Shown piece after piece: positions 40,578 to 60,067 of a DNA stretch of 64,000 bases. The notes under the pieces are model-generated. The model was given only the letters and a program-made list of their open reading frames with translations. It did no database searches and was not told the origin of the DNA. Each line of letters starts with the position of its first letter. Positions within the stretch are counted from its first letter, which is position 1. This stretch comes from an uncultured bacterium (GTDB lineage Bacteria > Myxococcota_A > Bradymonadia > UBA7976 > VGTA01). The stretch covers positions 227,871-291,870 of the forward strand of contig CALSSE010000007.1 in NCBI GenBank assembly GCA_943788935.1, in the 5' to 3' direction. Position numbers and translations under genes: made by a program.

Positions 40578-41947
40578 TCGCAGACCCTCGGCTGATCATC
40601 ACAGATCGTCACACCGGGGTTATGACTGCAGTCCCAGTCTTCGCAGTCAGTGAAACCGTCACCGTCGTTATCAACTTGGTCATTGCAGCGAGCATTTGCT
40701 TCAGAGAGAGATCCAGCACTCTCCTGACAGACTTTCTTAACCTCTTCATCAGATGATCGACTGCAAGAGTATTCTTCACAATCTGTCTCACCATCATTAT
40801 CGTTGTCGATGCCATCGCTGCAACTCTCAACGGTCGCTTCACAATATGCCTTTACTTCAGGGTCATCGCTACGACTGCAGGAGTAGTCATCACAGTCGGT
40901 GAAGCCATTACGATCATTATCTTTACCGTCGCTGCATTTCTCAAGGCTGACCTCAAGAACAGAGTCGCAATAAGCGACGATTTCTAGATTATCACTCTGG
41001 CTACAAGAATAGTCGCCACAGTCGGTAAAGCCGTTACCATCATTATCCTCTCCATCTTGACACTGCTCTAGGGTGTTCTCACCAAGAGAGTTACAGTAGC
41101 TGACGATGTCTTGGTTATCGCTGCGTGAACAGCTAAAGTCTCCGCAGTCAACGTAGCCGTTGCCGTCGTTATCAATGCCATCTTGACATTGCTCTAGGGT
41201 GCTCTCACTGAGAGATTCGCAATAGCTGACAATCTCGGGATTATCGCTGCGTGAACAGCCAAAATCTCCGCAGTCGACGTAGCCGTTTCCGTCATTATCA
41301 CCGCCATCTTGGCAACGAGCTAAGGTGTTCTCTTCACCTTGTTCAACCTCAGTCGCAGGTTCTTCGCTCGCTGCGCTCTCTAGCATACACTCCTCATCTT
41401 CAGAGTCGATCTTTCCATCACGGTCATTATCGAAGCCATCTGAGCAAAGGTCCTCTCCTGTTTCTCTTGTCAGGCAGACGGTAACGTAGATTCCACGTCG
41501 GCAACCAAAGTCTTCACAGTCAGTGAAGCCATTATCATCATTGTCGATCCCATCACTACAGGTTTCATTAGTGAACTCTCGTCCACAGCACAGCTCAGCG
41601 ATTTTTTGGCATTTACGATCACCACAGTCGTAGTTACCGTCATCGTCATTGTCTTGCCCATCGGTGCAAAGTACGAAGGTGTTCTCTTCCTCGTAGACGG
41701 GATTTAGGGGGACATAGACGCCGCAGAGGGTCGACTTTTGAAGACAACCGGTGTCTGCACAGTCGATCAAACCATCGTTGTCGTTATCAATCCCATCACT
41801 GCAGGATGTATCATCAAACTCATAGCCCATGACTGGGAGAGGCGGTTTCTTAAAGCTCTCGCAGCTTAATAGGCTCAGCGATAGCATCACTAGAGCGATG
41901 AGAGAGAGTGAGCAGCTCAAATGCTCTTTGCATACGTGGCTCATCAT
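40574..41947 (-). CDS. Lipoprotein made almost entirely of Cys/Asp-rich repeats (~40-aa unit x ~8)
   Basis: A lipobox is present (LSLLSC). The repeated unit is C-x-DG-x-DND-x-[ND]G-[YF]-[TV]DC-x-D-[FY]-[GS]C-S-[RQ]-SD-x-x-[EI]-V-x-[AS]-YC. The stop/start overlaps with the neighbouring genes on both sides. Confidence 0.6.
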   Translation of the reverse strand: MMSHVCKEHLSCSLSLIALVMLSLSLLSCESFKKPPLPVMGYEFDDTSCSDGIDNDNDGLIDCADTGCLQKSTLCGVYVPLNPVYEEENTFVLCTDGQDNDDDGNYDCGDRKCQKIAELCCGREFTNETCSDGIDNDDNGFTDCEDFGCRRGIYVTVCLTRETGEDLCSDGFDNDRDGKIDSEDEECMLESAASEEPATEVEQGEENTLARCQDGGDNDGNGYVDCGDFGCSRSDNPEIVSYCESLSESTLEQCQDGIDNDGNGYVDCGDFSCSRSDNQDIVSYCNSLGENTLEQCQDGEDNDGNGFTDCGDYSCSQSDNLEIVAYCDSVLEVSLEKCSDGKDNDRNGFTDCDDYSCSRSDDPEVKAYCEATVESCSDGIDNDNDGETDCEEYSCSRSSDEEVKKVCQESAGSLSEANARCNDQVDNDGDGFTDCEDWDCSHNPGVTICDDQPRVCE

Positions 41948-42927
41948 TTAAGACACACTGCTCTGCTCGCGCCAAAGCGACGTCGGAAGTCTACATAAAG
42001 CATGCAGGTCTCTACATCAGATTGGGCGGCTTCAACCCAACCAGCGCTCTTCATCGCCTCAAAGGCGTTCTTTGCGTCCGCTGAGTGAGCGTCGTTCTTT
42101 ACTTTGATCTTGGCGCCACTGTCGAGTGCAGCGGTGACCGCCTCGATTTGCTCTGCTTCACTATACTTCTCAATCCAAGCGCTAAGCTCTTTGCGTTTGG
42201 CCCAACGTGCTGCAAAGCGTTTGTAACGATCCTCTTTGGAAGGTTTCCAGCACACATCTTGGCACTCTTTGTAGGCATCATCATGCTTCCACTTGAGTGA
42301 GTGTCCATCTACACTTGACACGAGACGGTTATAGGTTGCGCGGTCACCACTACGCTCACTCGTAGAGTGAAGTGAGGTCAATACGTACTCAGGGACGCCA
42401 TGTGCCCAAATTCCACGTTTATTGACAACTGCCTCTCGCTGAGCAGCGACCGCATGAGCTTCTGCTGACTCTGAAGTCACGGTCATCGCATGAGCAAGAC
42501 CTTTTTTGATCTGATCGACGACAAGGCCTGGACAGACCCAAAGATAGCGACCGTAGGTGTCTGTGCTCAAGTCTGAGGTACAGGTCCATACACCCTCGCG
42601 AGCATTGTAGGTTCCCATCTTTGCTAGCGCATAGAGTTCTTTCTTAGTCCAATCTCCCCAAGAGTGAACTGCGCCATAACTTTCGAGGGTGTTAAAACCC
42701 GCAAGACGCGCTTTACTCCCCTTGAGGTCGCCAGAGAGAACTCGGAAGCTGTCACCGTCATTGAAAAATACGGGGGCATCTTTACCGTTTAGTTTAACTC
42801 GTGTCCGAGGCGTCGCCTCTGCGAGGCTAGAGCTCAAGAGGGTCGCTACAGCGATCATACAGAGAAGAGGGCTCATCTTTGATGAGATTAGATTTAGGCT
42901 GAGCATAAGACCTCCAAGTGAATACAC
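41944..42927 (-). CDS. Secreted SNase/thermonuclease-like nuclease, paralog B, with a C-terminal extension
   Basis: A signal peptide is present. The stretch NDGDSFRVLSGDLKGSKARLAGFNTLESYGAVHSWGDW...YGRYLWVCP aligns with ORF 13883-14584 and with the SNase GDT...RL.G.D.PE / R motifs. Confidence 0.6.
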   Translation of the reverse strand: MYSLGGLMLSLNLISSKMSPLLCMIAVATLLSSSLAEATPRTRVKLNGKDAPVFFNDGDSFRVLSGDLKGSKARLAGFNTLESYGAVHSWGDWTKKELYALAKMGTYNAREGVWTCTSDLSTDTYGRYLWVCPGLVVDQIKKGLAHAMTVTSESAEAHAVAAQREAVVNKRGIWAHGVPEYVLTSLHSTSERSGDRATYNRLVSSVDGHSLKWKHDDAYKECQDVCWKPSKEDRYKRFAARWAKRKELSAWIEKYSEAEQIEAVTAALDSGAKIKVKNDAHSADAKNAFEAMKSAGWVEAAQSDVETCMLYVDFRRRFGASRAVCLK

Positions 42928-46941: not shown

Positions 46942-47838
46942 ATGTCAAAGCGTAAACCCAAAAAAAGTCGGAAGAAGTCTAAGCCAAGCCGGAAGAGAAG
47001 AGAGGCTAAGGTTCAGCAGAAGTCGGTCCGAGAGGTTCAGACAGAGAAGCGCTCTCAGAGGCTACGGCTCAAGGTGGGCGAGCAGCGGAGTCGCCTGACG
47101 CAGTGGTATCTCTCCAAATCTATGGTGGCTAGGGTCACTTTAGGCTTGGTGATCATCCCTCTTCTTATAGCGCTCTTCCTCTTGCAAGGGATTATCTTAC
47201 CTTTTGTTGCCGCGGCTTTCGCGATCTTTATTACGATCAGTAAAGTGGCTTTGGTGTGGCTCAAAGGCGGAGCTTTTATCGTTTATATAAGCTATAAGGT
47301 CTTCAAGGCTCTCCTCGGGGTTTATTACTGTGTCAGTAGAACTCTTAGCGGTTGGAAAGCTGATCGGTTGCGTCATCAACAAGCTCGTCTCCCTATGGTT
47401 AAAGAGGCAGAATATCCAGCTCTGGCGATAGAAGGTCTGGAAGCGGAGAGCATTGAGTTGAACGCCTCTTGGAAGACCTTATCGGTTAAGACCGATGAGA
47501 CGGAGCATAAGCTGCTCTTCTCATATCTCCGATATTTTATCATCGGGCAGTTCTTTATGTATCAATCATTTTGGAAAGATCGTGTCGCATACTTGACTCT
47601 CTGGCGAGAGGTGAGTCGTCAACGGGTCAAAGAGATATTCGCTTATATAGGTCAAACTATTTTCACTCCCCATCTGTTGGGAGCTCACATTAACTCTAAA
47701 CGCCTACTCATCCCCGGTGATAGTCGTTTAGTTAATATGAGCCCCAGCGTCTCTCGATCAGATCAGATAGAATATACCTTTGAGGTTGTCTGGAAAGAGT
47801 GGAGCTTCTCTAAGCAGTGGCCCTTCTTGCATGCCTAG
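46942..47838 (+). CDS. Hypothetical membrane protein with a Lys/Arg-rich N-terminus
   Basis: The N-terminus MSKRKPKKSRKKSKPSRKRREAK is followed by 2-3 TM helices. No known domain was recognised. Confidence 0.4.
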   Translation: MSKRKPKKSRKKSKPSRKRREAKVQQKSVREVQTEKRSQRLRLKVGEQRSRLTQWYLSKSMVARVTLGLVIIPLLIALFLLQGIILPFVAAAFAIFITISKVALVWLKGGAFIVYISYKVFKALLGVYYCVSRTLSGWKADRLRHQQARLPMVKEAEYPALAIEGLEAESIELNASWKTLSVKTDETEHKLLFSYLRYFIIGQFFMYQSFWKDRVAYLTLWREVSRQRVKEIFAYIGQTIFTPHLLGAHINSKRLLIPGDSRLVNMSPSVSRSDQIEYTFEVVWKEWSFSKQWPFLHA

Positions 47839-47959: not shown

Positions 47960-49396
47960 ATGAATAGAGTACACAATTCAACTCAGAAGATAGCTCAGAA
48001 CATGACTCGAAAGATAACTCAGCTAGCTCTCTCAAAGAGCGCGAGGTACAGACTCTTTGGGCAGACTAGACTGGTCACCACCCTCATGGCCTTTGGTCTT
48101 ATTAGCCTGACGACAAGTGGGTGTGTTGAGATCGCCGAGGTCAAACTAGACGCTTTTATAGGGATGTCGACCCCTGGGAATGGAGAAGACTTAGGAGAGC
48201 TCGCTCCTCTTGGAGAGAGCCGTCTCCTTCATTTTCAAACGACCTCCGGAGCTCGGGCTTTAAGCATCTCTGACCAGCGACTCAATACACTCTGTGAAGC
48301 GGGGAGCGCTCGTCTCAGCGGAGACGCAGAGAGAATGCTCTGCCTCCCCGATACTGACGCTACTCCTCTTCAATTTATCGATCGTTTCTCCGGTTCATTG
48401 ATCATGAGCTTAGGTGAATGGACCGAGAGCTCAGAGGCCAGCCCCACGCTACCACGATCTGGGAGCGCGTTCGCATCTCCGATCAAGATCCCTGAGCAGA
48501 TAGATCATATCGCTGTCTATAATGATTTCGCGCAAGAGGTCGGTCGAATTAAATCTCTCACTCTCCACGGCTTTATTGGACCAGATCACCTAGTGATTAA
48601 TTCTCCGGCCGAAATCTGGAGCTTCAATGCTGAGCCTCAAGGAGGTCTCACTATCGAAGAAGAAGAGCCTGAGCCTGTGGTGACCACCATCGGGACGAGA
48701 GATTTCAAACGCCATGATTTCCCTCCTTATGGTGTCCTCTATGATGAGCAGAATTTACTCTATTTTTTAGGGGTCGATCAAACAGCCTCGGTTAAAGTTG
48801 GAGTGGGCGAGTTGATCGGTACTGGAGAGCGACGAGCCATCACTCTCTATCGGGAGCGAGGCTCTCCTACCAAACTTAATGTGTATGCTCTTGACACAGA
48901 AGCCAATGCCCCTGCCCTTCACAGTCTTGATCTACCGACGGGTAGTTTTGGCCAAAACTATCGGGCGAAGATGATCGGGCGAGATAAGGTTCTCTTCGAG
49001 GCTTACCGGACTCGTACATGTGATGATCGGGTAGAATACCCGGTAGAGACTTTATTGATCGACCTTAAAAGTGAGCGAATTATCACTATCAATGATAGCC
49101 AGGAGCCGCATCAAGTAGTGGTCGGTGGAGAGGGTCGATTTGGGTTGATCAGCTATCTAGATAATTGTGGGAGAGCGATGGGGACAGGAGAGTTATATGA
49201 TCTAAGAGAGAAAGAGACTCGAGCCCTCCCTGAGGTGATGAGAGGGAGCGTAAAAGAGGTCGCAGTCAGCTCGAGAGGAGGCTATCTCGCCGTGATGTCA
49301 GATGACACTGTGTGGCTTTTAGATGGTTCGAGTCTCGAGCACCAGGTCGTCCTCTCCAATGAGCAGATGGTTGGGGAGCTGAGGTTTAATCCGTGA
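47960..49396 (+). CDS. Hypothetical exported protein
   Basis: It is a 478-aa ORF with a hydrophobic N-terminal segment near a Cys (LISLTTSGCVE). No domain was recognised. Its stop overlaps the murB start. Confidence 0.4.
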   Translation: MNRVHNSTQKIAQNMTRKITQLALSKSARYRLFGQTRLVTTLMAFGLISLTTSGCVEIAEVKLDAFIGMSTPGNGEDLGELAPLGESRLLHFQTTSGARALSISDQRLNTLCEAGSARLSGDAERMLCLPDTDATPLQFIDRFSGSLIMSLGEWTESSEASPTLPRSGSAFASPIKIPEQIDHIAVYNDFAQEVGRIKSLTLHGFIGPDHLVINSPAEIWSFNAEPQGGLTIEEEEPEPVVTTIGTRDFKRHDFPPYGVLYDEQNLLYFLGVDQTASVKVGVGELIGTGERRAITLYRERGSPTKLNVYALDTEANAPALHSLDLPTGSFGQNYRAKMIGRDKVLFEAYRTRTCDDRVEYPVETLLIDLKSERIITINDSQEPHQVVVGGEGRFGLISYLDNCGRAMGTGELYDLREKETRALPEVMRGSVKEVAVSSRGGYLAVMSDDTVWLLDGSSLEHQVVLSNEQMVGELRFNP

Positions 49397-51417
49397 GTGA
49401 GATCAGTCCTCCTCAGGTCATGACAGGCTCTGCCTGTCCCCTAATTTCGGCTCTGACCACTTTGGAGATAGGAGGGAGACCTCACTTCTACGCTAAGGTA
49501 ACGACTGAAACAGAAGCACTGATAGTGGCGCGATGGGCCAAGAGCCAAGGGCTAAAACTTTGGATGATCGGTGGGGGGTCTAATGTTGTTGTAGACCATA
49601 ATGTCCCCAAGGGGCTCTTTATACAGCTCGCTTTGCGACAGATCGATTGGGGAGAGGATAAGTCTTCATCGATGGAGAGTGGGATCATCGAGCAGCGCGT
49701 CACCCTTGGCGCCGGTGTAGTCTGGACTGATTTTGTAGAGGAGAGTGTGCAGAGGGGACTCGCAGGCGTAGAGTGTTTAGTTGGGATTCCTGGATGGGTA
49801 GGCGCTGCACCCATTCAAAATATAGGAGCATATGGACAATCTCTTAGTGATCGCTGTCTCGGGGTCAAGGTCTATGATATTGAGCGTGACCTCGTTGACT
49901 CTTGGAGCGCTGAACGCTGCTCATTCGCTTATCGTGATAGCTTATTTAAGCGCTCAGAGGGGAGATACATAATCCTTGAGGTGACCCTCTCACTCACCCG
50001 AGGCGGCGCCCCTACACTTCATTATCCACAGCTCCGCGATCGGCTTGATGAGGCAGGATGTGGTGCAGACCCCACACTCATGGAGGTCTGTGATATGGTG
50101 AAACGGGTACGGGCAGAGAAATCTATGCTGTGGACAGCAGATGATCCTAATCGACGAAGTGTAGGATCATTTTTTATGAACCCTGTTCTCTCTCCTGCCA
50201 GTATGAAAGCCTTAGATGTACGTTGTCAGCAGAGAGAGGTGACTTCACCCCCAAGGTGGTCCACCGAGGTTGGCTTTAAGGTGCCTGCGGCTTGGTTGAT
50301 CGAACAGAGCGGTTTATCCAAAGGGTATACCCAAGGGAGAGTCGGCCTCTCTAGTAAGCACTGTTTAGCCCTCATCAGTCATGGTGGCGCAAGTTACAAT
50401 GATATGCTCTCTTTCGCTGAAGAGGTGCAGCGGCGAGTGTGGTCTCTGTTTCGGGTGTGGTTAGAGCCCGAGGCTAGAATCTTGAGCGACGCCCCGAGCC
50501 CGCTCTCATTTTCACCTCGAATCGCCCTCGCGACCTGTGACTCTCTCCCTGATTGGGAGGTAGATGATCGACCGCTATGGAGCGCTCTGAGTGCCGAAGG
50601 GTTTCAACTCGTCCACCCCGCTTGGGATGACCCACTGTTCGATTGGGGAGCTTGTGATCTAGTGATCCCTCGCACTACATGGGATTACCAAGGCAAGTGG
50701 AGAGCCTTCCTAGAATGGATGGAAAGAGTAGATCAAGTCTCGACGCTCAGTAATCCGCTAGAGCTGATGAAGTGGAATCTCGATAAACGATATCTTAGGG
50801 ATTTAGCGATCTCTCAGCCTCCAACTCATTGGCTCAGCCAGCGCGCGCTCGATGAAGGAACGCTCGATGAGACAGTCAGTGAAGTGATCGGATATTGTAC
50901 ATCCCAGGGATGGGAGAGGGCGTTTCTTAAGCCGAGTGTAGGCGCATCTGCGATAGGGACGCTGCGCTTCTCACTCTCTGACTCCATGTTCAAGATGCAG
51001 TTGAGAGATCATCTCGCCACATGGCTCCCTAAGAGGACGATGATCCTCCAACCATATGTCGAGGGAGTTGAAGTGGTCGGAGAGTGCTCTCTCATTTATT
51101 TTGGAGGAGAGTTCAGTCACGGAGTCAGAAAGGTACCCGTCAGCGGTGATTATCGCGTACAAGACGATTACGGCGCTACCGATATGCCATGGACTCCCCC
51201 GCCAGAATGGAGAGTTGCCTGTCAAGAGCTCATCGCTCGACTCCCTCAAGCGCCACTTTATGCTCGCTGTGACCTTCTGCATGGACCCAATGATTCGCCA
51301 TGGCTCATAGAGCTAGAGTTGATTGAACCCTCCCTGTTTTTTCGACATAATTTGGATAGTCCACAGAGGTTTGCACGAGCGATCAAGCAGCATCTACAGT
51401 TTGTAGACAGAAAATAA
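49393..51417 (+). CDS. murB: UDP-N-acetylmuramate dehydrogenase (MurB) fused to a ~330-aa C-terminal domain of unclear function, possibly ATP-grasp-like
   Basis: The N-terminal half carries an FAD-binding MurB signature (FYAKVTTETEALIVARWAKSQGLKLWMIGGGSNVVV...GLAGVECLVGIPGWVGAAPIQNIGAYG). Residues ~370-674 have no MurB counterpart. The ATP-grasp assignment is weak. Confidence 0.65.
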   Translation: MSEISPPQVMTGSACPLISALTTLEIGGRPHFYAKVTTETEALIVARWAKSQGLKLWMIGGGSNVVVDHNVPKGLFIQLALRQIDWGEDKSSSMESGIIEQRVTLGAGVVWTDFVEESVQRGLAGVECLVGIPGWVGAAPIQNIGAYGQSLSDRCLGVKVYDIERDLVDSWSAERCSFAYRDSLFKRSEGRYIILEVTLSLTRGGAPTLHYPQLRDRLDEAGCGADPTLMEVCDMVKRVRAEKSMLWTADDPNRRSVGSFFMNPVLSPASMKALDVRCQQREVTSPPRWSTEVGFKVPAAWLIEQSGLSKGYTQGRVGLSSKHCLALISHGGASYNDMLSFAEEVQRRVWSLFRVWLEPEARILSDAPSPLSFSPRIALATCDSLPDWEVDDRPLWSALSAEGFQLVHPAWDDPLFDWGACDLVIPRTTWDYQGKWRAFLEWMERVDQVSTLSNPLELMKWNLDKRYLRDLAISQPPTHWLSQRALDEGTLDETVSEVIGYCTSQGWERAFLKPSVGASAIGTLRFSLSDSMFKMQLRDHLATWLPKRTMILQPYVEGVEVVGECSLIYFGGEFSHGVRKVPVSGDYRVQDDYGATDMPWTPPPEWRVACQELIARLPQAPLYARCDLLHGPNDSPWLIELELIEPSLFFRHNLDSPQRFARAIKQHLQFVDRK

Positions 51418-51520: not shown

Positions 51521-52600
51521 GTGGTAGCCCCATCTATAGAGCTCACACTTGAGCTTCAAACCGCAGTTATTATTGTCTCTCATAATCCATGGAGGGTGCA
51601 TTCATTTAACGCCACTGCTCACAAATGGTTAGGAGAGGTACTAAGAGCTAATGCACAAATTTCAGAGATCTTATTAGGGATCAATGAGAAGGCTCTAAGG
51701 CGTCGCTTGGGTAAAGGGAGAGATGCTCGGTTTGATTATGACCTCGAAATTAGCCCTGGGATCATAGCGCCAGTTGAGTTCGTCTGTACCACAACCAATG
51801 GACTTGAAGAAGGAGTGATCCTTGAGGGGTCAGAGCAGACGAGGGCTAAATCTGCAGAGCTGATGCTCTCCTCATATAGCCATATGATCGAGGAGAAGAC
51901 TCAAGAGCTAGAAGCGGCGATTCAAGCGAGAGATCACTTCTTTTCAACGATGTCACATGAGCTAAGAACCCCTTTAAATGCGATATTAGGGTTTAGTGAG
52001 TCACTCATTGATGAAATCTATGGAGACTTGACCGCTGAGCAAGAGAAGGTCATCAAAAAAATATATATCAGTGGTCAAAATCTAATGTCCCTGCTGTCTA
52101 ATCTGCTTAATCTGTCACGTATTAGATCAGGAAAACTTGGCTTGGTGCTTGAATCGGTTAATCTTCAAGATATCTGTCAAGAATCGATCTCTCGATTCAA
52201 AGAGGAACTAGAGGATAAATCACTTAGGGTGGTCACTGAATACCAAGACGTAGGGCAGCCCCTGATTAACCCTCTATGGGCGCATCAGCTTATAGATCAC
52301 TTGATAAGTAATGCTATTAAATTTAGCGAGAAGGAGAGCTCTATAGGCGTTCATATATCAGCTCAAGAGCAGTCTATCCGAGTCACAGTGTGGGATGAGG
52401 GTATCGGGATTCCTGCTCAATATTTGAACAAAATTTTTCAACCCTTTATGCAAGTCGACTCTTCTTTATCAAGAGGCTATGAGGGCTCAGGGCTAGGACT
52501 CTCAGTCGTGGCGGAGGTGATGCGGCTTCACCGCGGTGCGGTGAGCGTAGAGAGTAAACTGAATAGGGGGAGCCAGTTTCATCTTGACTTCATGCTATGA
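51521..52600 (+). CDS. Sensor histidine kinase with an N-terminal PAS-like sensor domain
   Basis: An H-box is present (FFSTMSHELRTPLNAILGFSE). HATPase N, G1 and G2 boxes are present (...ISNAIKFS..., VWDEGIGIP, GSGLGLSVV). Confidence 0.8.
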   Translation: MVAPSIELTLELQTAVIIVSHNPWRVHSFNATAHKWLGEVLRANAQISEILLGINEKALRRRLGKGRDARFDYDLEISPGIIAPVEFVCTTTNGLEEGVILEGSEQTRAKSAELMLSSYSHMIEEKTQELEAAIQARDHFFSTMSHELRTPLNAILGFSESLIDEIYGDLTAEQEKVIKKIYISGQNLMSLLSNLLNLSRIRSGKLGLVLESVNLQDICQESISRFKEELEDKSLRVVTEYQDVGQPLINPLWAHQLIDHLISNAIKFSEKESSIGVHISAQEQSIRVTVWDEGIGIPAQYLNKIFQPFMQVDSSLSRGYEGSGLGLSVVAEVMRLHRGAVSVESKLNRGSQFHLDFML

Positions 52601-52611
52601 CTCTTGAGGTC

Positions 52612-53722
52612 TCAGTCTTCACCAATGTAGTCTCGCATAAAGTGTTCATCGAGGCTGTCTTGATGAGGGAGAATGACTTCTGACTCGATCAAGTCAGCGC
52701 AGGGGTTGCCTATAATATCCTCAAGGTAGAACATAAGCATCTCGCCTTTTCCTTTGACGTTAATGAGGCCACGAGGCTCAATGACAAAGTCATTAGAGAG
52801 GAGGTTATGAGTCGCTTCAGACATGTTAATTTTCATCTCGGCTGAGTTACTCTCCATACGGCTAGCGGTGTTGACCCCATCTCCGAAGATGTCATAAATA
52901 TATTTTAATCGACCAACAACGCCTCCTGTGACCTCACCGGTGTGAATACCAATACGACATCGCCACTCATACTTAGAGTTTTGATTTCTCTGTTGAATAT
53001 ATTCTCGCATTCGATAAGCCGCTAAGGAGAGAAGATTCGCGTGATCTGATATCCGTTTAGGCATGCCGCAGACTGCTAAATAAGCATCTCCTATGGTTTT
53101 GATACGCTCACAACGATGTTGAATAATAATATTGTCAAATTGAGTAAATATATCATTTAATTCTCTGAAGAGTGTATCGGTTGACATCTTAGTCGATAGA
53201 GTGGTGAACCCCACAAAATCGAGAAATAAGACCGAGACTTCATCAAACTTCTCAGGTTGAGTCTGTCCTTGATCTCTCAACTGATTGACACAAGTCTCGG
53301 GCAAAGTATTAAACAAGAGTCGCTCAACTTTTCTCTGCTCTCGTTGAATAAGTTTATTTTTCTTCTCTATAACCTCGCTATACGACTTTAGCATCAACTC
53401 AGTCTCACGAGCAGCAGAGTGATCAGACCCCTCGATAAGGTACTTACCATCGTCCAAGATTTTGAACAGAAAGCATATGGTACTCGCACTCTTAGACTCA
53501 TATTCTTCAATAAAGTCACACACTCGACCCTTAATTATATCTCTTGATCAGACGATCAATATTTACATCGGGGAAGATGGAGCTAAATGTGGGAGATGAC
53601 TCAGCGGATAGTCGTTGCTTTAGAACGTATTCGGCGCTCTTATTAAAGAACGCTAGCGACAGATCATCTGAGTTAAATATTAGGATGAGAACTCTAATTT
53701 GATCAAGTAAACTTTGTTCCAT
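52612..53722 (-). CDS. Class III adenylate/guanylate cyclase with an N-terminal PAS-like sensor domain; the frame is broken near 53525
   Basis: The cyclase core reads FLDFVGFTTLS...RIKTIGDAYLAVCGMP...RIGIHTGEVTGGVVG. The N-terminal domain is split between ORFs 53531-53722 and 52612-53523 (different frames). Both pieces align to the N-terminus of HK 51521-52600. Confidence 0.7.
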
Positions 53723-53736
53723 CTTGATCTGTTTAC

Positions 53737-54093
53737 TTAAGTTGATTCGACGATAGAGCTCTTGGTGCTACCGACAATACTCATCACAGACTCAATATCT
53801 TCATCTTCCATACCGACATCTTCAAGGGTCTCTTGAAGGATCTCAGCGACTTCATTGAAGTCAGCCTCGGTGATACGCAATCCTTTGTGACTCATCTCGA
53901 GAGTTCGCCCTGTATATTCGGCGGGTCCACCAAGCGCATGACTAATGAACTTGGTTTGATGATCGATCAATCGCTCCATATCCACGCCTTCAAAGTATAC
54001 CTTAAGGTTTTGGCTACTCAAAACATCTCGATAGAACTGACGGACGATTTGGCTTACGGTCGCAAATCCACCATATTTTTCAAATAAACTCAT
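53737..54093 (-). CDS. Truncated (2/2) hemoglobin, group I-like
   Basis: The sequence LFEKYGGFATVSQIVRQFYRDVLSSQNLKVYFEGVDMERLIDHQTKFISHALGGPAEYTGRTLEMSHKGLRITEADFNEVAEIL matches the trHbN consensus (GG motif, proximal His context). Confidence 0.75.
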   Translation of the reverse strand: MSLFEKYGGFATVSQIVRQFYRDVLSSQNLKVYFEGVDMERLIDHQTKFISHALGGPAEYTGRTLEMSHKGLRITEADFNEVAEILQETLEDVGMEDEDIESVMSIVGSTKSSIVEST

Positions 54094-54166: not shown

Positions 54167-55387
54167 TTAGTAGGTGATGAGTGGATCAAGGTTTTGAGCT
54201 GTTTTTGCTCCAATTCCTCTCACTCGACGTAAATCTTCTGGGCTGTTGAAGCGCTGCTCTTTTCTAGCGTTTATGATCCTCTTACCTAAGGTTGGTCCGA
54301 TGCGAGGCAGAGATTGAAGTTCAATGAGGGAAGCGGTGTTCACGTTTATTTTACCCTCATGGCTAGCGCCTGACTTCGAGGGGGAAGGTTTTAAAGCGTT
54401 AAGTCTATAATGCTTTGTCGTCTTGGCTTGGTTTTCAACCTTATTCACCGTAGGTTGCCGCTCGCTAGCTTTAAGGATCCAACGTTCACCGTCAGTCTCA
54501 GCGATGATCGTCCCTGAGGTGGCGGTTACCCAAGGTTGAGCTTCTATTCGTTTCAACGCGAGTAGGGTCTCCGGGGAGGGGTGACCATAGCGGTTGCTCT
54601 CGCTACAAGAGACGACTGCATGTTTGGGTTTTACTGCGTTAAGGAATGCTCGTCCCGAGGCGTGTTTACTCCCGTGATGAGCAACTTTAAGGAGGTCCGC
54701 TCTGAGTCGCTTGTGATGCTTCATAAGACGTGCCTCTGTCTCTTCTTCCGCATCACCAGTGAAGAGAGCCGCTTGATCTTTATACGTGAGACGAAAAACG
54801 ATCGAGTTACTGTTAGCATCTGACCGAGAGTGCTTAATTAGAGGGTCCTCAGGGGCGAGGAGCTCTATCTCCGCTCCTCCACCGATGTGTATTTTTCTGC
54901 CTAGTCGACCTAAACGCAGAGGTATATCTTTCTCTTTAACAGCCTCTAAAAAGTCTCGGTAGGCTCGAATTGGGTGAGCGAATCCAGAGTCGACAATCGC
55001 CTTCACCGAGTATCGATTGATAATACGAGCAGCGTTACCGATATGATCGGCATGGGGATGAGAATTGATCATGAGGTCGATCTGTTTAATCTTAAGTCGA
55101 TCAAGGTAAGCGCTTAATGACTTCCAACTCTTTGACGGACCAGAGTCGAGCAATATCCATTTTCCGGAAGGGCTTTCAATCAAGGCACTGTCACCTTGAC
55201 CAATATCAAGAAAATGCACCCTGAGAGGTTCAGCAGAGAGACTACAAAGAGGAGAGAAACCCAAAATTAATAAGAAAAATAGGTAACGAAACTTTGATCT
55301 TAGGTGTCTAAACAATGTTGACGGGTCATGCATAAATAATCGCCTAACATAAAGGAATGTGGTGAGGCCTAGTTGAGAAAGGTTCAA
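54167..55387 (-). CDS. Exported MBL-fold metallo-hydrolase (ComEC-C-terminal-like) fused to a ComEA-type helix-hairpin-helix DNA-binding domain
   Basis: A signal peptide is present. The HxHxDH motif is LMINSHPHADHIGN. The C-terminal stretch INVNTASLIELQSLPRIGPTLGKRIINARKEQRFNSPEDLRRVRGIGAKTAQNL is a ComEA HhH. Confidence 0.7.
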   Translation of the reverse strand: MNLSQLGLTTFLYVRRLFMHDPSTLFRHLRSKFRYLFFLLILGFSPLCSLSAEPLRVHFLDIGQGDSALIESPSGKWILLDSGPSKSWKSLSAYLDRLKIKQIDLMINSHPHADHIGNAARIINRYSVKAIVDSGFAHPIRAYRDFLEAVKEKDIPLRLGRLGRKIHIGGGAEIELLAPEDPLIKHSRSDANSNSIVFRLTYKDQAALFTGDAEEETEARLMKHHKRLRADLLKVAHHGSKHASGRAFLNAVKPKHAVVSCSESNRYGHPSPETLLALKRIEAQPWVTATSGTIIAETDGERWILKASERQPTVNKVENQAKTTKHYRLNALKPSPSKSGASHEGKINVNTASLIELQSLPRIGPTLGKRIINARKEQRFNSPEDLRRVRGIGAKTAQNLDPLITY

Positions 55388-57684: not shown

Positions 57685-58428
57685 ATGAGAGTTCAGGTAA
57701 TGAGTGACCTTCACTTTGAATATCATTCTGATCGAGGAGAGTCTTGGATTCGCTCATTAGATTCATCGAATGTCGATGTTTTGATACTCGCTGGTGATAT
57801 CGCTGAGATTAATCAAGGGGGTCTCTCGTTTGCTTTAGCTCGTTTTTGTGATCGATATCCCCAAGTGGTTTTTGTGCCTGGTAATCATGAATATTATGGC
57901 TCCTCAATCGAGGAGGCCGAGCACCGGTTAGATGAACTAGAAGCGAGCTATAATCATCTGCATATTCTACGAGGTGATGCGGTCGATATCAACGGTCAGC
58001 GTTTTGTTGGGGCGACGCTCTGGTTCACCGATCGAGATGATTCTGACCATGAGGCGTGGACCCTCCGGCTTAATGATTTTAAGATGATCAAAGGAGGGTT
58101 TGAGTCATGGGTTTACTCTCAAGCAGACAGAGAAGCTCAATTTTTGATGAACACTATACAGAGCGGAGATGTCGTCGTCACCCACCATATCCCCTCTAAA
58201 CGTGGGGTCGCAGAGCGTTGGCAAAACTCGATCGAAGGCTTCGGTCGATTCTTTGTACATGAGCTACCCGAGTCGCTCGTCACTAAAGCTCGTTTGTGGT
58301 GCCATGGCCATGGTCATGACAGTGTACAGACGACGATTGGAGATCATCTATTGGTCGCTAATCCGTTTGGCTACCTTAACGTAGAAGAGAACCCTCGCTT
58401 TAATCCCTGCCTTTTTTTTGATCTATAA
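57685..58428 (+). CDS. Calcineurin-like metallophosphoesterase
   Basis: The motifs are MRVQVMSDLHFE, LILAGDIAE, FVPGNHEYYG and VVTHHIP...CHGHGH. Confidence 0.75.
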   Translation: MRVQVMSDLHFEYHSDRGESWIRSLDSSNVDVLILAGDIAEINQGGLSFALARFCDRYPQVVFVPGNHEYYGSSIEEAEHRLDELEASYNHLHILRGDAVDINGQRFVGATLWFTDRDDSDHEAWTLRLNDFKMIKGGFESWVYSQADREAQFLMNTIQSGDVVVTHHIPSKRGVAERWQNSIEGFGRFFVHELPESLVTKARLWCHGHGHDSVQTTIGDHLLVANPFGYLNVEENPRFNPCLFFDL

Positions 58429-58438
58429 CTCGTCTCTG

Positions 58439-60067
58439 CTATCGACTCTTGGTTGGAGAGGAACTTCTTTTTTGTCTCCTAGGATCAGGGGCTAATTTTG
58501 GCATATCGGGGAGCTTTTCTCGAGCTTGTTTCACTAGCTCTCTCGCCTTGAGTAGGACGACGAGGTTGGTCGGTATACAATAAAACCCCCGAGCCTCTTC
58601 CCGCCAAAACTGATAACCGCTTCTGACCCATTCTACTCGTCGCGCTCGCATTAAGATTAGTTGATGAGGCGTGAGAAGCGGAGGAGTGTTTAGGCGCTTA
58701 ATATGGCGTCTGAGGTGAGCTTCGAAGAGATCCATGAGCGGCCCCTCCTGACAAGATTGGTGGTGGGTAATCTCATCAAACCAATGAGCGAGGCGCAGAG
58801 GGTTAAGCGGGCGCCATGGCTGATCAGCCAAGGTGACTTGATCGAGAGTAGAGTGAGGCTCATGCTCCCAAGAGCCTCCTCCATTTTCACTATACTCAAG
58901 AATAAGAGAGGAGCGAGCGGTGGGGAGCTTAGTCCACTCGGTGTCTCGTTGAGTGAGTAAGAGTGGATAAAGACGGTGGGTTACACTTTCTTTAGGTCGC
59001 TCCCAACCGTATAAACCACTCCCTAAAACGCAGAGTAATATGACAATAGAGACCAGCGAGTAATAAGGAGTTGACGTGTCCTCTTGAGGAGGAGACCAGA
59101 GGAGATAACCCACCGCTAAGAGCAGCGGAGTCACGCTGAGGTGATCACTGAGACAGAGCCAACCGCCGATGTATAAGAGCGGCCATTTCACTAGACTTGA
59201 GGGAGAGAAACGCTCTAGAGAGAATCGCTTGGATAACTGGGCGTCTAGCCCTCGAGAGATCCTCATGTCAAGGCTGAGTGCACCGATAATCCATAGAGCG
59301 GTTCCTGACCATGAGGGGACACCCTCACCGCACCATAAGGCAACCGGGGTGATCAAGCACCACAGGATAGGCCAGAGCCGAATCTGCATAAAACAGGCTA
59401 AGGGACCCCAAGCGAGACTCGCTAACAGAGCCGCTGTCGTCGCTTGTCTAATCCATTGAGAGGTAGATGCAAAGCTCTCGGCGAGAGGGGTTGGAACTGC
59501 TGAGGTCCATCCCCAAAAATTGAGCCCTGCAAGTTGTCCCCATAGGTTCAAGGGATGCTGGAGGGCTATGTTGAGGGAAGGCCAAGCCCACAAGGCAAAT
59601 AGACCAGCGACCGCCCATCTTGAGGCTTGATGTTGTTGATCCCTCGCTGACGTCCTCACCAAGCATAGGGCGGTGAGAGCGATCAGTATCCGATCGGGCG
59701 TTTTGATGAGCTCAAACGGCAGTTGGCTCAAGGTGAGTCCTCCACCGACGAGCGTGATAAGGAGCCCTACAAAGAGAAACCGTGCGCTGACGAGCGCCAA
59801 AGCGCCTAGCACCCATAGTAAAGGAGCGAGGACGTCCAAGCCATTAATGAGCCGTTGAGCATAGGAATGAAAGATACCCGTCTCAGTGATCAATGCTTGA
59901 TCATTAACAAACCAAGAGGTGATGAGGATAAGATGGGCGATCCCGATGAGTCTTAGCGCCCATTGGTAACGATCAAAGAGTTTTGAGCTTAGACTATTTG
60001 CCATCATCATGTATCCCTGTAGAGATAGAGGTAGAGCGGAGATGACTAGCAAGTCCCAAGGCCTCAA
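58439..60067 (-). CDS. Polytopic membrane protein with a C-terminal soluble domain (hypothetical)
   Basis: It is a 542-aa ORF with ~10 predicted TM helices in the first 330 aa. No motif was recognised. Confidence 0.45.
   Translation of the reverse strand: MRPWDLLVISALPLSLQGYMMMANSLSSKLFDRYQWALRLIGIAHLILITSWFVNDQALITETGIFHSYAQRLINGLDVLAPLLWVLGALALVSARFLFVGLLITLVGGGLTLSQLPFELIKTPDRILIALTALCLVRTSARDQQHQASRWAVAGLFALWAWPSLNIALQHPLNLWGQLAGLNFWGWTSAVPTPLAESFASTSQWIRQATTAALLASLAWGPLACFMQIRLWPILWCLITPVALWCGEGVPSWSGTALWIIGALSLDMRISRGLDAQLSKRFSLERFSPSSLVKWPLLYIGGWLCLSDHLSVTPLLLAVGYLLWSPPQEDTSTPYYSLVSIVILLCVLGSGLYGWERPKESVTHRLYPLLLTQRDTEWTKLPTARSSLILEYSENGGGSWEHEPHSTLDQVTLADQPWRPLNPLRLAHWFDEITHHQSCQEGPLMDLFEAHLRRHIKRLNTPPLLTPHQLILMRARRVEWVRSGYQFWREEARGFYCIPTNLVVLLKARELVKQAREKLPDMPKLAPDPRRQKRSSSPTKSR

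Follow-up and report, generated by a model that had tools for sequence, protein, structure and literature searches.

A truncated hemoglobin gene paired with a PAS-like sensor domain in an uncultured bradymonadial bacterium: a candidate two-gene module for heme-based gas sensing

Stand-alone H-NOX and NosP proteins of bacteria are small, single-domain heme proteins that are encoded in operons with a cytoplasmic histidine kinase (HK) or GGDEF enzyme, which they regulate in trans (PMC8738867, PMC8846402). In the globin-coupled sensors HemAT, EcDosC, BpeGReg and AfGcHK, a 3-on-3 sensor globin responding to O2/NO is fused in cis to its output, a methyl-accepting chemotaxis protein (MCP), GGDEF or HK module. 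In soluble guanylate cyclase, a fused H-NOX heme sensor is followed by a PAS domain, a long helix, a cyclase transducer element and a class III catalytic domain. Here we describe a locus in a 64,000 nt stretch of DNA (the window) from an uncultured bacterium (GTDB lineage Myxococcota_A; Bradymonadia; GenBank assembly GCA_943788935.1, contig CALSSE010000007.1, positions 227,871 to 291,870), where the gene for a group I truncated hemoglobin (trHb) directly precedes the gene for a class III adenylate cyclase, and a convergent HK gene lies on the other side of the cyclase. The cyclase and the HK share a homologous N-terminal, PAS-like sensor domain. Judged by comparative genomics only, we consider it probable that the trHb and the PAS-like domain encoded downstream of it form a two-gene, heme-based gas-sensing module in which the trHb acts in trans.

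As in the H-NOX/HnoK, H-NOX/diguanylate cyclase and NosP/NahK pairs, a stand-alone heme protein is encoded beside a signalling enzyme, an arrangement present in 56 of the 63 related loci described below (median spacer 4 nt), and as in the H-NOX and NosP families, one sensor family would serve several output types. The trHb module differs in its heme protein, which has the 2-on-2 fold of truncated globins in place of that of H-NOX or NosP, and in its partners, which share a dedicated N-terminal PAS-like receiver and include class III adenylate cyclases and PP2C phosphatases; interaction with the partner and its regulation are, for this module, predictions. Globin-coupled sensors likewise join a globin heme domain to signalling outputs, but the window trHb is a separate open reading frame (ORF) of 118 residues with its own stop codon and would work through a PAS interface. 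The trHb-cyclase module has the same order of parts as soluble guanylate cyclase, and the window cyclase aligns to soluble and receptor guanylate cyclase chains from the helix onwards (the helix also gives a weak match to HNOBA, E 0.013, with a score below the Pfam cutoff). In contrast to soluble guanylate cyclase, the heme module is an unfused trHb and the enzyme is predicted to be homodimeric and adenylate-specific (Lys/Asp). The general kind of system, a trans-acting heme sensor with a partner enzyme, is therefore a known one, and what appears to be new is the use of a trHb as the sensor and an uncatalogued PAS subfamily. In the open-access literature, including a 1107-sequence analysis of the trHb family, we found no account of a trHb being paired with a signalling enzyme that carries a PAS domain.

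Metagenome contigs were scanned on the basis of globin similarity alone, with an alignment of the window trHb and the trHb encoded upstream of a related sensor-cyclase (P0007) as the query, and the six-frame translations of the 63 loci selected in this way were searched with a hidden Markov model of the sensor domain. In 56 of these loci, a sensor domain is encoded immediately downstream of the trHb and on the same strand. Two others (L043 and L054) keep only a remnant, that of L043 being a sensor-like start cut by the contig end, while three have less than 100 nt of downstream sequence and two carry a divergent globin (30–34% identity) with no separate sensor ORF. Approached from the sensor side, every sensor-cyclase examined (P0004, P0007 and P0010) has a trHb, or the C-terminus of one, encoded directly upstream, and the same is found for the sensor-PP2C protein P0011.

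The junctions are tight. Across the 56 positive loci, the sensor begins 14–114 nt after the point at which the globin match ends, or as much as 206 nt after it if the domain was scored only in part. Over 64 junctions, the median of the inferred distance from trHb stop to sensor start is 4 nt; 18 of them overlap and 42 lie at 0–30 nt. In the window, where the trHb had been described as lying directly upstream of the cyclase on the minus strand, this placement was borne out, and the 14 nt gap implies an operon-type junction from which co-transcription of the two genes would be predicted. The outputs that follow the sensor are diverse. Class III cyclases were recognized by BLASTP similarity to the window catalytic domain in 29 of the 56 loci, and GGDEF outputs in 18 (with a Pfam GGDEF match in all seven tested, and a GGEEF motif in all 17 full-length examples). 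A further two loci encode hybrid kinases with a receiver domain (Pfam), and seven are cut off before the output. A SpoIIE/PP2C output is present in one locus, L087, which was retrieved from the sensor side and not by the trHb scan. Since the pairing follows the sensor across four types of output, the trHb is likely to be partnered with the sensor rather than with the output domain.

The genes around the pair also vary. A phosphonate (phn) gene cluster precedes it in Roseibium sp. (L081), it lies among Planctomycete-type PSCyt/PSD genes in L009, and the gene upstream is GST-like in the closest relatives of the locus (L077–L080) and ComEC/ComEA-like in the window. Because it is found in such unrelated flanking contexts, the trHb-sensor pair appears to behave as a mobile two-gene cassette. 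Relatives of the locus come from marine metagenomes (TARA, SOLA). A preliminary description of the window, made without database searches, had suggested that the adjacent globin may deliver the signal to the cyclase; the recurrence of the pair in 56 of 63 trHb-selected loci, the two remnants, the four output types and the usually touching or overlapping junctions together lend that suggestion strong comparative support.

The same description had aligned the N-terminus of the cyclase with that of the convergent HK, and this holds: with the frameshift in the cyclase repaired (see below), the two share 28% identity over 121 residues (BLASTP E 2e-9). No third copy of the domain was detected by tblastn in the whole 64 kb window. 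A profile of the two N-termini was searched exhaustively (HMMER) against 1.84 billion cluster representatives, of which 37 matched at E ≤ 1e-3, two of them being repetitive false positives. In every full-length protein among the remaining matches, the domain occupies the extreme N-terminus of a signalling protein, and it is followed by an HK core, a class III cyclase, a SpoIIE/PP2C phosphatase, a GGDEF domain, a GAF-HK combination or an MCP signalling domain. Uninterrupted sensor-cyclases among the matches are P0007, P0010 and P0013. A word-indexed protein search with the two-sequence profile gave no match, and one with a 35-sequence profile gave 16, mostly fragments. Searches of the two window proteins with the Pfam PAS and GAF models found no match at E ≤ 1, no NCBIfam model covers the sensor region (the HK models span the kinase core from about residue 115), and the sensor profile found no match among the PDB sequences. 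Some of the 35 aligned relatives do give weak Pfam matches (PAS_8 in 14, PAS_9 in seven, PAS_4 in four and PAS in four; best E 2.6e-5).

At the level of structure, the assignment is clearer. An AlphaFold2 model of HK residues 1–136, built on the family alignment, has a mean predicted local distance difference test score (pLDDT) of 91.7 and a predicted template modelling score (pTM) of 0.75, and shows two strands, three short helices, three long strands and a 29-residue helix. The five-stranded antiparallel sheet flanked by helices that these form is a PAS fold. Foldseek returned 51 matches in the PDB at E ≤ 1e-3 (best E 7.5e-5, template modelling scores of 0.6–0.7, 12–20% identity), and all of the matches listed are PAS or LOV domains: the short LOV proteins of Pseudomonas, the PAS domain of Rv1364c, EcDOS, FixL, YtvA and the engineered LOV kinase YF1. 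By this model and its structural matches, the segment common to the two N-termini is a folded PAS-type domain with a conserved C-terminal helix, and not a generic coiled-coil linker, which the preliminary description had named as the outcome that would undo its case. Its use of the name PAS is correct at the level of the fold alone, whereas the Pfam PAS and GAF models do not recognize the domain in either window protein. With modules such as YtvA, PpSB1-LOV, FixL and EcDOS, the window sensor shares the fold and a C-terminal exit helix (Jalpha in those modules), and its D-x-S/T junction resembles their DIT motif. Unlike them, it has no conserved cofactor-ligating residues and no Pfam PAS match. 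Judged by the profile searches, the domain constitutes a small PAS subfamily that had not been catalogued before.

Conservation within this family is concentrated away from the PAS core. Among 57 sensor sequences, N30 is the only core position conserved in more than 80%, whereas E113, S118, Y119 and E124 of the exit helix (motif E..ML.SYS...E) all exceed that level, and no histidine is conserved anywhere in the domain. Because of the missing His, the lack of a near-invariable core and the concentration of conserved residues on the exit helix, this pattern agrees better with a domain that receives its signal from a protein than with one that has a cofactor pocket. The alternative that the PAS-like domain itself binds a cofactor such as heme or flavin, with the trHb as a heme donor, chaperone or redox partner, would draw on the presence of the heme-PAS proteins FixL and EcDOS and of flavin-binding LOV domains among the closest structural matches, and on a Cys at the position of HK residue 103 in about half of the family. 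That position is Gly in the other half, both window proteins included, the Foldseek likeness is at the level of the general fold only, and the features of conservation just given also speak against it; we regard this alternative as very unlikely.

The other member of the pair is a clear group I trHb (trHbN). The window protein matches Pfam Bac_globin with E 7e-22 and 78.3 bits (cutoff 21), and its best PDB matches (phmmer) are all group I trHbs (1uvx, 1dly and 1idr, E about 1e-17), the solved structures matched being those of Chlamydomonas, Tetrahymena, Mycobacterium tuberculosis HbN and cyanobacterial GlbN proteins. Residue alignment assigns TyrB10 to Y21, PheCD1 to F34, LeuE7 to L42, HisE10 to H45, GlnE11 to Q46 and the proximal HisF8 to H69, and alignment to 1dly and 1uvx places both Gly-Gly hinges, at G8-G9 and G55-G56. 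This key motif set is conserved at 97–100% across 57 members of the subfamily (H69 and F34 in 100%, H45 and Q46 in 98%, Y21 in 97%), and the hinge glycines are conserved too. Since the heme residues and hinge glycines are kept across the subfamily, its members should be heme proteins. In Synechococcus GlbN and Chlamydomonas THB1, the E10 residue (His and Lys, respectively) ligates the iron of the resting, hexacoordinate protein, and the protein changes conformation as this distal ligand is released (PMC11904497). The window trHb belongs to the same family and has a potential distal ligand, H45, in the same position as these two proteins, for which no signalling partner is described in the literature examined. 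By analogy, hexacoordination of the window trHb may be expected, and decoordination of HisE10 would be a plausible switch for a sensor.

Taken together, these features suggest the following mechanism. The trHb would bind heme, with HisE10 ligating the iron until displaced by O2, NO or CO, and the displacement would bring about a conformational change. Made from the same transcript as its partner, the trHb would dock in trans on the N-terminal PAS-like receiver, and the ligand or redox state of the heme would be passed through the PAS beta-sheet to the conserved C-terminal helix (E..ML.SYS...E). In a cyclase, the helix would act on the cyclase transducer element (ERLLFNTLPE) and so change the activity of the dimeric output domain. 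The cognate output in this genome would be the adenylate cyclase, and hence cAMP, and the paralogous receiver on the convergent HK may let the same trHb control a phosphorelay as well.

Among the related loci, several departures from the usual arrangement were seen. In L054 (608-1358), the trHb frame lacks its C-terminal end and continues directly as the C-terminal half of a class III cyclase. Either the sensor and the first cyclase half were deleted internally, or the contig is misassembled. The sensor-GGDEF ORF linked to the trHb of L053 (817-1473) ends at 219 residues, before the GGEEF motif, where close relatives have 315–323 residues, and may be a second disrupted output gene in the family. 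Candidate natural trHb-PAS fusions in L042 and L028 were rejected, as the long ORFs are in a different frame from the globin. A genuine fusion of another kind occurs on the 154 kb contig L072 (4908-5867, plus strand), where a divergent trHb (34% identity to the window trHb; Pfam Bac_globin 9-122) is joined to a GGDEF-like domain (136-289) with a degenerate GRSEF motif and no PAS receiver. It shows that truncated globins can act as signalling inputs.

The features of the locus are collected in Table 1; those named in the preliminary description were all found at the coordinates it gave. The stop codons of the convergent HK and cyclase genes are 11 nt apart. Rfam and promoter/terminator scans yielded nothing useful.

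Table 1. Features of the trHb, cyclase and HK genes in the window (positions are those of the 64,000 nt stretch).
Feature	Position	Strand	Evidence
Group I trHb (trHbN), 118 aa	53737-54093	minus	own ORF, Pfam and PDB matches
Spacer between trHb stop and cyclase ATG, 14 nt	53723-53736	minus	read from sequence
Class III adenylate cyclase gene, interrupted by a frameshift	52612-53722	minus	ORFs, frame translations, intact alleles
Cyclase 5' fragment, 63 aa; first half of the PAS-like sensor (two strands and helices)	53531-53722	minus	
Cyclase 3' ORF, 303 aa if GTG at 53523 is the start; second sensor half, helix and catalytic domain	52612-53523	minus	
Cyclase catalytic domain, residues 156-334 of the intact protein	52720-53256	minus	PF00211
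One-base insertion (TT; T in the intact allele), creating a TAA stop at 53531-53533	53533-53534	minus	
HK, cytoplasmic, 359 aa	51521-52600	plus	Pfam HisKA and HATPase_c
HK sensor module: PAS fold and Jalpha-like signalling helix, signature E..ML.SYS...E	51521-51925	plus	AlphaFold, Foldseek

The repaired cyclase matches Guanylate_cyc (PF00211) with E 9e-55 and is 62% and 58% identical to intact orthologues in L077 and L080, respectively. The intact protein has 369 residues, comprising the PAS-like sensor, a long helix, the cyclase transducer element and the catalytic domain. In an alignment with domains C1 and C2 of mammalian AC5, all six canonical catalytic residues are present: the two metal-binding Asp, the adenine-specifying Lys/Asp, and the transition-state Asn and Arg. 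As the Lys/Asp pair that determines the substrate is the one typical of adenylate cyclases, the intact enzyme should make cAMP; the earlier proposal of cAMP or cGMP as output is thereby narrowed to the former.

In the window, this gene is broken. The frame that begins with the ATG at 53722 ends after 63 codons (53531), and a second frame, one base off, runs for 303 codons to 52612, the break splitting the PAS domain between its helical part and the last three strands. On the minus strand, the window reads TATAATTAAGGG at this point, while two closely related contigs, L085 and L086, read TATAATAAGGG, so that the window has one extra T at 53533/53534. An indel had been suspected within 53515-53535, and the insertion falls inside that range. 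Both contigs encode an intact 369-residue cyclase (P0181), which falls in the same 90% cluster as the 303-residue product, and they match the window at 99.7% identity along 6.9 and 4.4 kb, with the same gene order, the convergent HK included. L085 further departs from the window by a 15 nt intergenic indel near the IF-3 gene (L085 1141-1150, against about 56120 of the window).

That the extra T is a sequencing or assembly error, with the cyclase intact in the organism, is an explanation favoured by the open frame in these two nearly identical contigs, but an identical insertion occurs in three independent assemblies (L001–L003) from different sequencing runs, which match the window at 99.94–100% identity without gaps, and gene callers report the 303-residue ORF in independent assemblies as well. 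Two variants of the 303-residue product with single substitutions (P0179 and P0180) come from yet other datasets and show that the interrupted allele exists on more than one haplotype. The site is TT against T, with no long homopolymer, and an error here is hardly credible. Because the insertion is shared by independent assemblies, an intact allele is present in L085 and L086, and the two variants exist, the frameshift is a genuine strain-level polymorphism, and neither an assembly error nor a fixed pseudogene. Programmed frameshifting and phase variation were considered and rejected, given the TT versus T site, the immediate TAA and the intact allele in sister strains. A second frameshift, seen in P0004, is probably an assembly-end error, as it lies at the end of a 622 bp contig and L080 has a near-identical intact orthologue. 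Translation of the window gene could be imagined to restart at the GTG seven bases past the stop, though this is speculation. The cAMP branch is probably inactive or deregulated in the strain of the window, while sister strains keep the intact gene.

Several points weigh against the trHb being a gas-sensing subunit for the PAS-like receiver. The trHb loci were retrieved by the N-terminal motifs of one subfamily, and the association is valid for that subfamily and not for trHbs generally. The distance matrices of trHb and sensor are correlated (Mantel r 0.75, a value reached by none of 5000 permutations), but shared phylogeny alone could explain this. As the frameshifted cyclase allele occurs in several samples, at least this population can do without the cAMP branch. 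Near the HK orthologues P0001, P0005 and P0006 (L007, L083 and L084), neither a trHb nor a cyclase was found, so that the sensor domain apparently either needs no linked globin or draws on one encoded elsewhere. The HK clade nests among the trHb-linked sensors in a neighbour-joining tree, which is one without support values. Lastly, characterized group I trHbs, such as HbN of M. tuberculosis, are NO dioxygenases.

This last point leads to the alternative that the trHb is an enzyme, a NO dioxygenase or other scavenger of reactive nitrogen or oxygen species, which is merely co-expressed with a PAS domain that senses a signal of its own; the globin would then shape or insulate local O2/NO levels or protect the pathway. 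The distal residues of HbN at B10, E7 and E11 are Tyr, Leu and Gln, the same set as in the window trHb. NO detoxification is the best-documented function of trHbN (quoted in PMC4256840), and operon linkage alone does not prove physical contact. On the other side, the linkage follows the PAS-like domain through many taxa and four outputs unrelated to each other, and the junctions are translationally coupled, which goes beyond what would be expected of a loosely associated scavenger. No reductase partner was found in the module among the annotated loci examined, the PAS core is without conserved pocket residues, and the highly conserved HisE10 is a trait of hexacoordinate trHbs and not of HbN. 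We judge the enzyme alternative to be unlikely, though less so than cofactor binding by the PAS-like domain, and continue to favour a trans-acting trHb sensor.

Whether the convergent HK belongs to the same system is less clear. It is made up of the PAS-like sensor (residues about 10–105), the helix (107–135), HisKA (137–204; Pfam E 1e-18) with an SHELRTPL H-box, and HATPase_c (251–356; E 1e-25). No receiver domain that could indicate a response regulator was found among the neighbours scanned, the HK being flanked by a MurB-like fusion gene and the convergent cyclase. The HK falls in a distinct subfamily (P0001–P0003, P0005 and P0006; 40–57% sensor identity), and in a scan of the genome contigs the HK matched kinase-core relatives only. 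The HK could have no functional tie to the trHb-cyclase pair: its sensor would be a paralogue that has diverged and takes another input, and its convergent position here would be incidental. The orthologues without a trHb or cyclase nearby favour this, as do the close relatives of the trHb-cyclase pair (L077–L080), none of which has an adjoining HK, and the low identity between the HK and cyclase sensors. Set against this are the retention by the HK of all five signature residues of the family, its position among trHb-linked sensors in the tree, the conservation of its adjacency within the species (L085 and L086), and its GC content, which is low like that of the trHb and cyclase genes. An unrelated HK is a serious possibility, although we lean slightly away from it. 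GC content is 0.447 for the HK, 0.413 for the cyclase and 0.440 for the trHb, against 0.496 for the window as a whole, 0.52 for the MurB-like gene and 0.509 for the IF-3 gene, which hints that the three genes may have arrived together.

It had been proposed that the two outputs, cyclic nucleotide synthesis and phosphorelay, read the same signal through paralogous sensor domains. The sensors are indeed paralogous, but the link to a common signal is drawn from that homology alone, and the HK orthologues lack a linked trHb. A trHb feeding both receivers is an attractive, homology-based idea for which the chances appear roughly balanced. As drawn, the two-output scheme is inoperable in the strain of the window, where the cyclase is interrupted, and is possible in sister strains with the intact allele. 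With the cyclase sensor cut, the HK would be the sole intact receiver in the window's strain.

Other genes of the neighbourhood were also annotated. Directly upstream of the trHb, on the same strand and with a gap of 73 nt, is a gene (54167-55387, minus strand) for a metallo-beta-lactamase domain (ComEC/Rec2-like) fused to a C-terminal, ComEA-type helix-hairpin-helix DNA-binding domain. The MurB-like gene beside the HK (49393-51417, plus strand) specifies an unusual MurB fusion of 674 residues, in which the MurB domains (FAD_binding_4 and MurB_C) are confined to residues 30–363 and the C-terminal 310 or so residues have no Pfam match at E ≤ 1. A calcineurin-like metallophosphoesterase (Metallophos; 57685-58428, plus strand), with a weak NCBIfam match to 'putative phosphoesterase', is encoded 3.6 kb from the cyclase. 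ORFs of 298–542 residues near the locus without a significant Pfam match are found at 41944-42927 (minus strand), 46942-47838 (plus strand), 47960-49396 (plus strand) and 58439-60067 (minus strand).

The physiological role of most bacterial truncated hemoglobins is unsettled, and both a family-wide analysis (PMC4720485) and structural work (PMC11904497) treat ligand chemistry rather than signalling partners. The pairing with one sensor on four kinds of enzyme gives this subfamily a concrete, testable function. In its broadest form, which we hold to have an even chance of being right, the proposal is that group I trHbs with HisE10 of this subfamily are dissociable heme gas-sensor subunits and not scavengers, each with a dedicated PAS-type receiver for cAMP, c-di-GMP, phosphorelay or PP2C outputs. 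Such a 'split globin-coupled sensor' would join H-NOX and NosP as a third family of heme sensors that act in trans in bacteria, and at this locus a single trHb would feed both cyclase and kinase receivers. Soluble two-protein systems for biochemistry are offered by the pair of Roseibium sp. GCA_050301095.1 and the intact allele P0181, and the frameshifted and intact alleles in one marine population form a natural comparison for the role of the cAMP branch. If true, the finding would add a new protein family to those that sense gases through heme, and would establish the new PAS subfamily as a likely receiver of protein signals.

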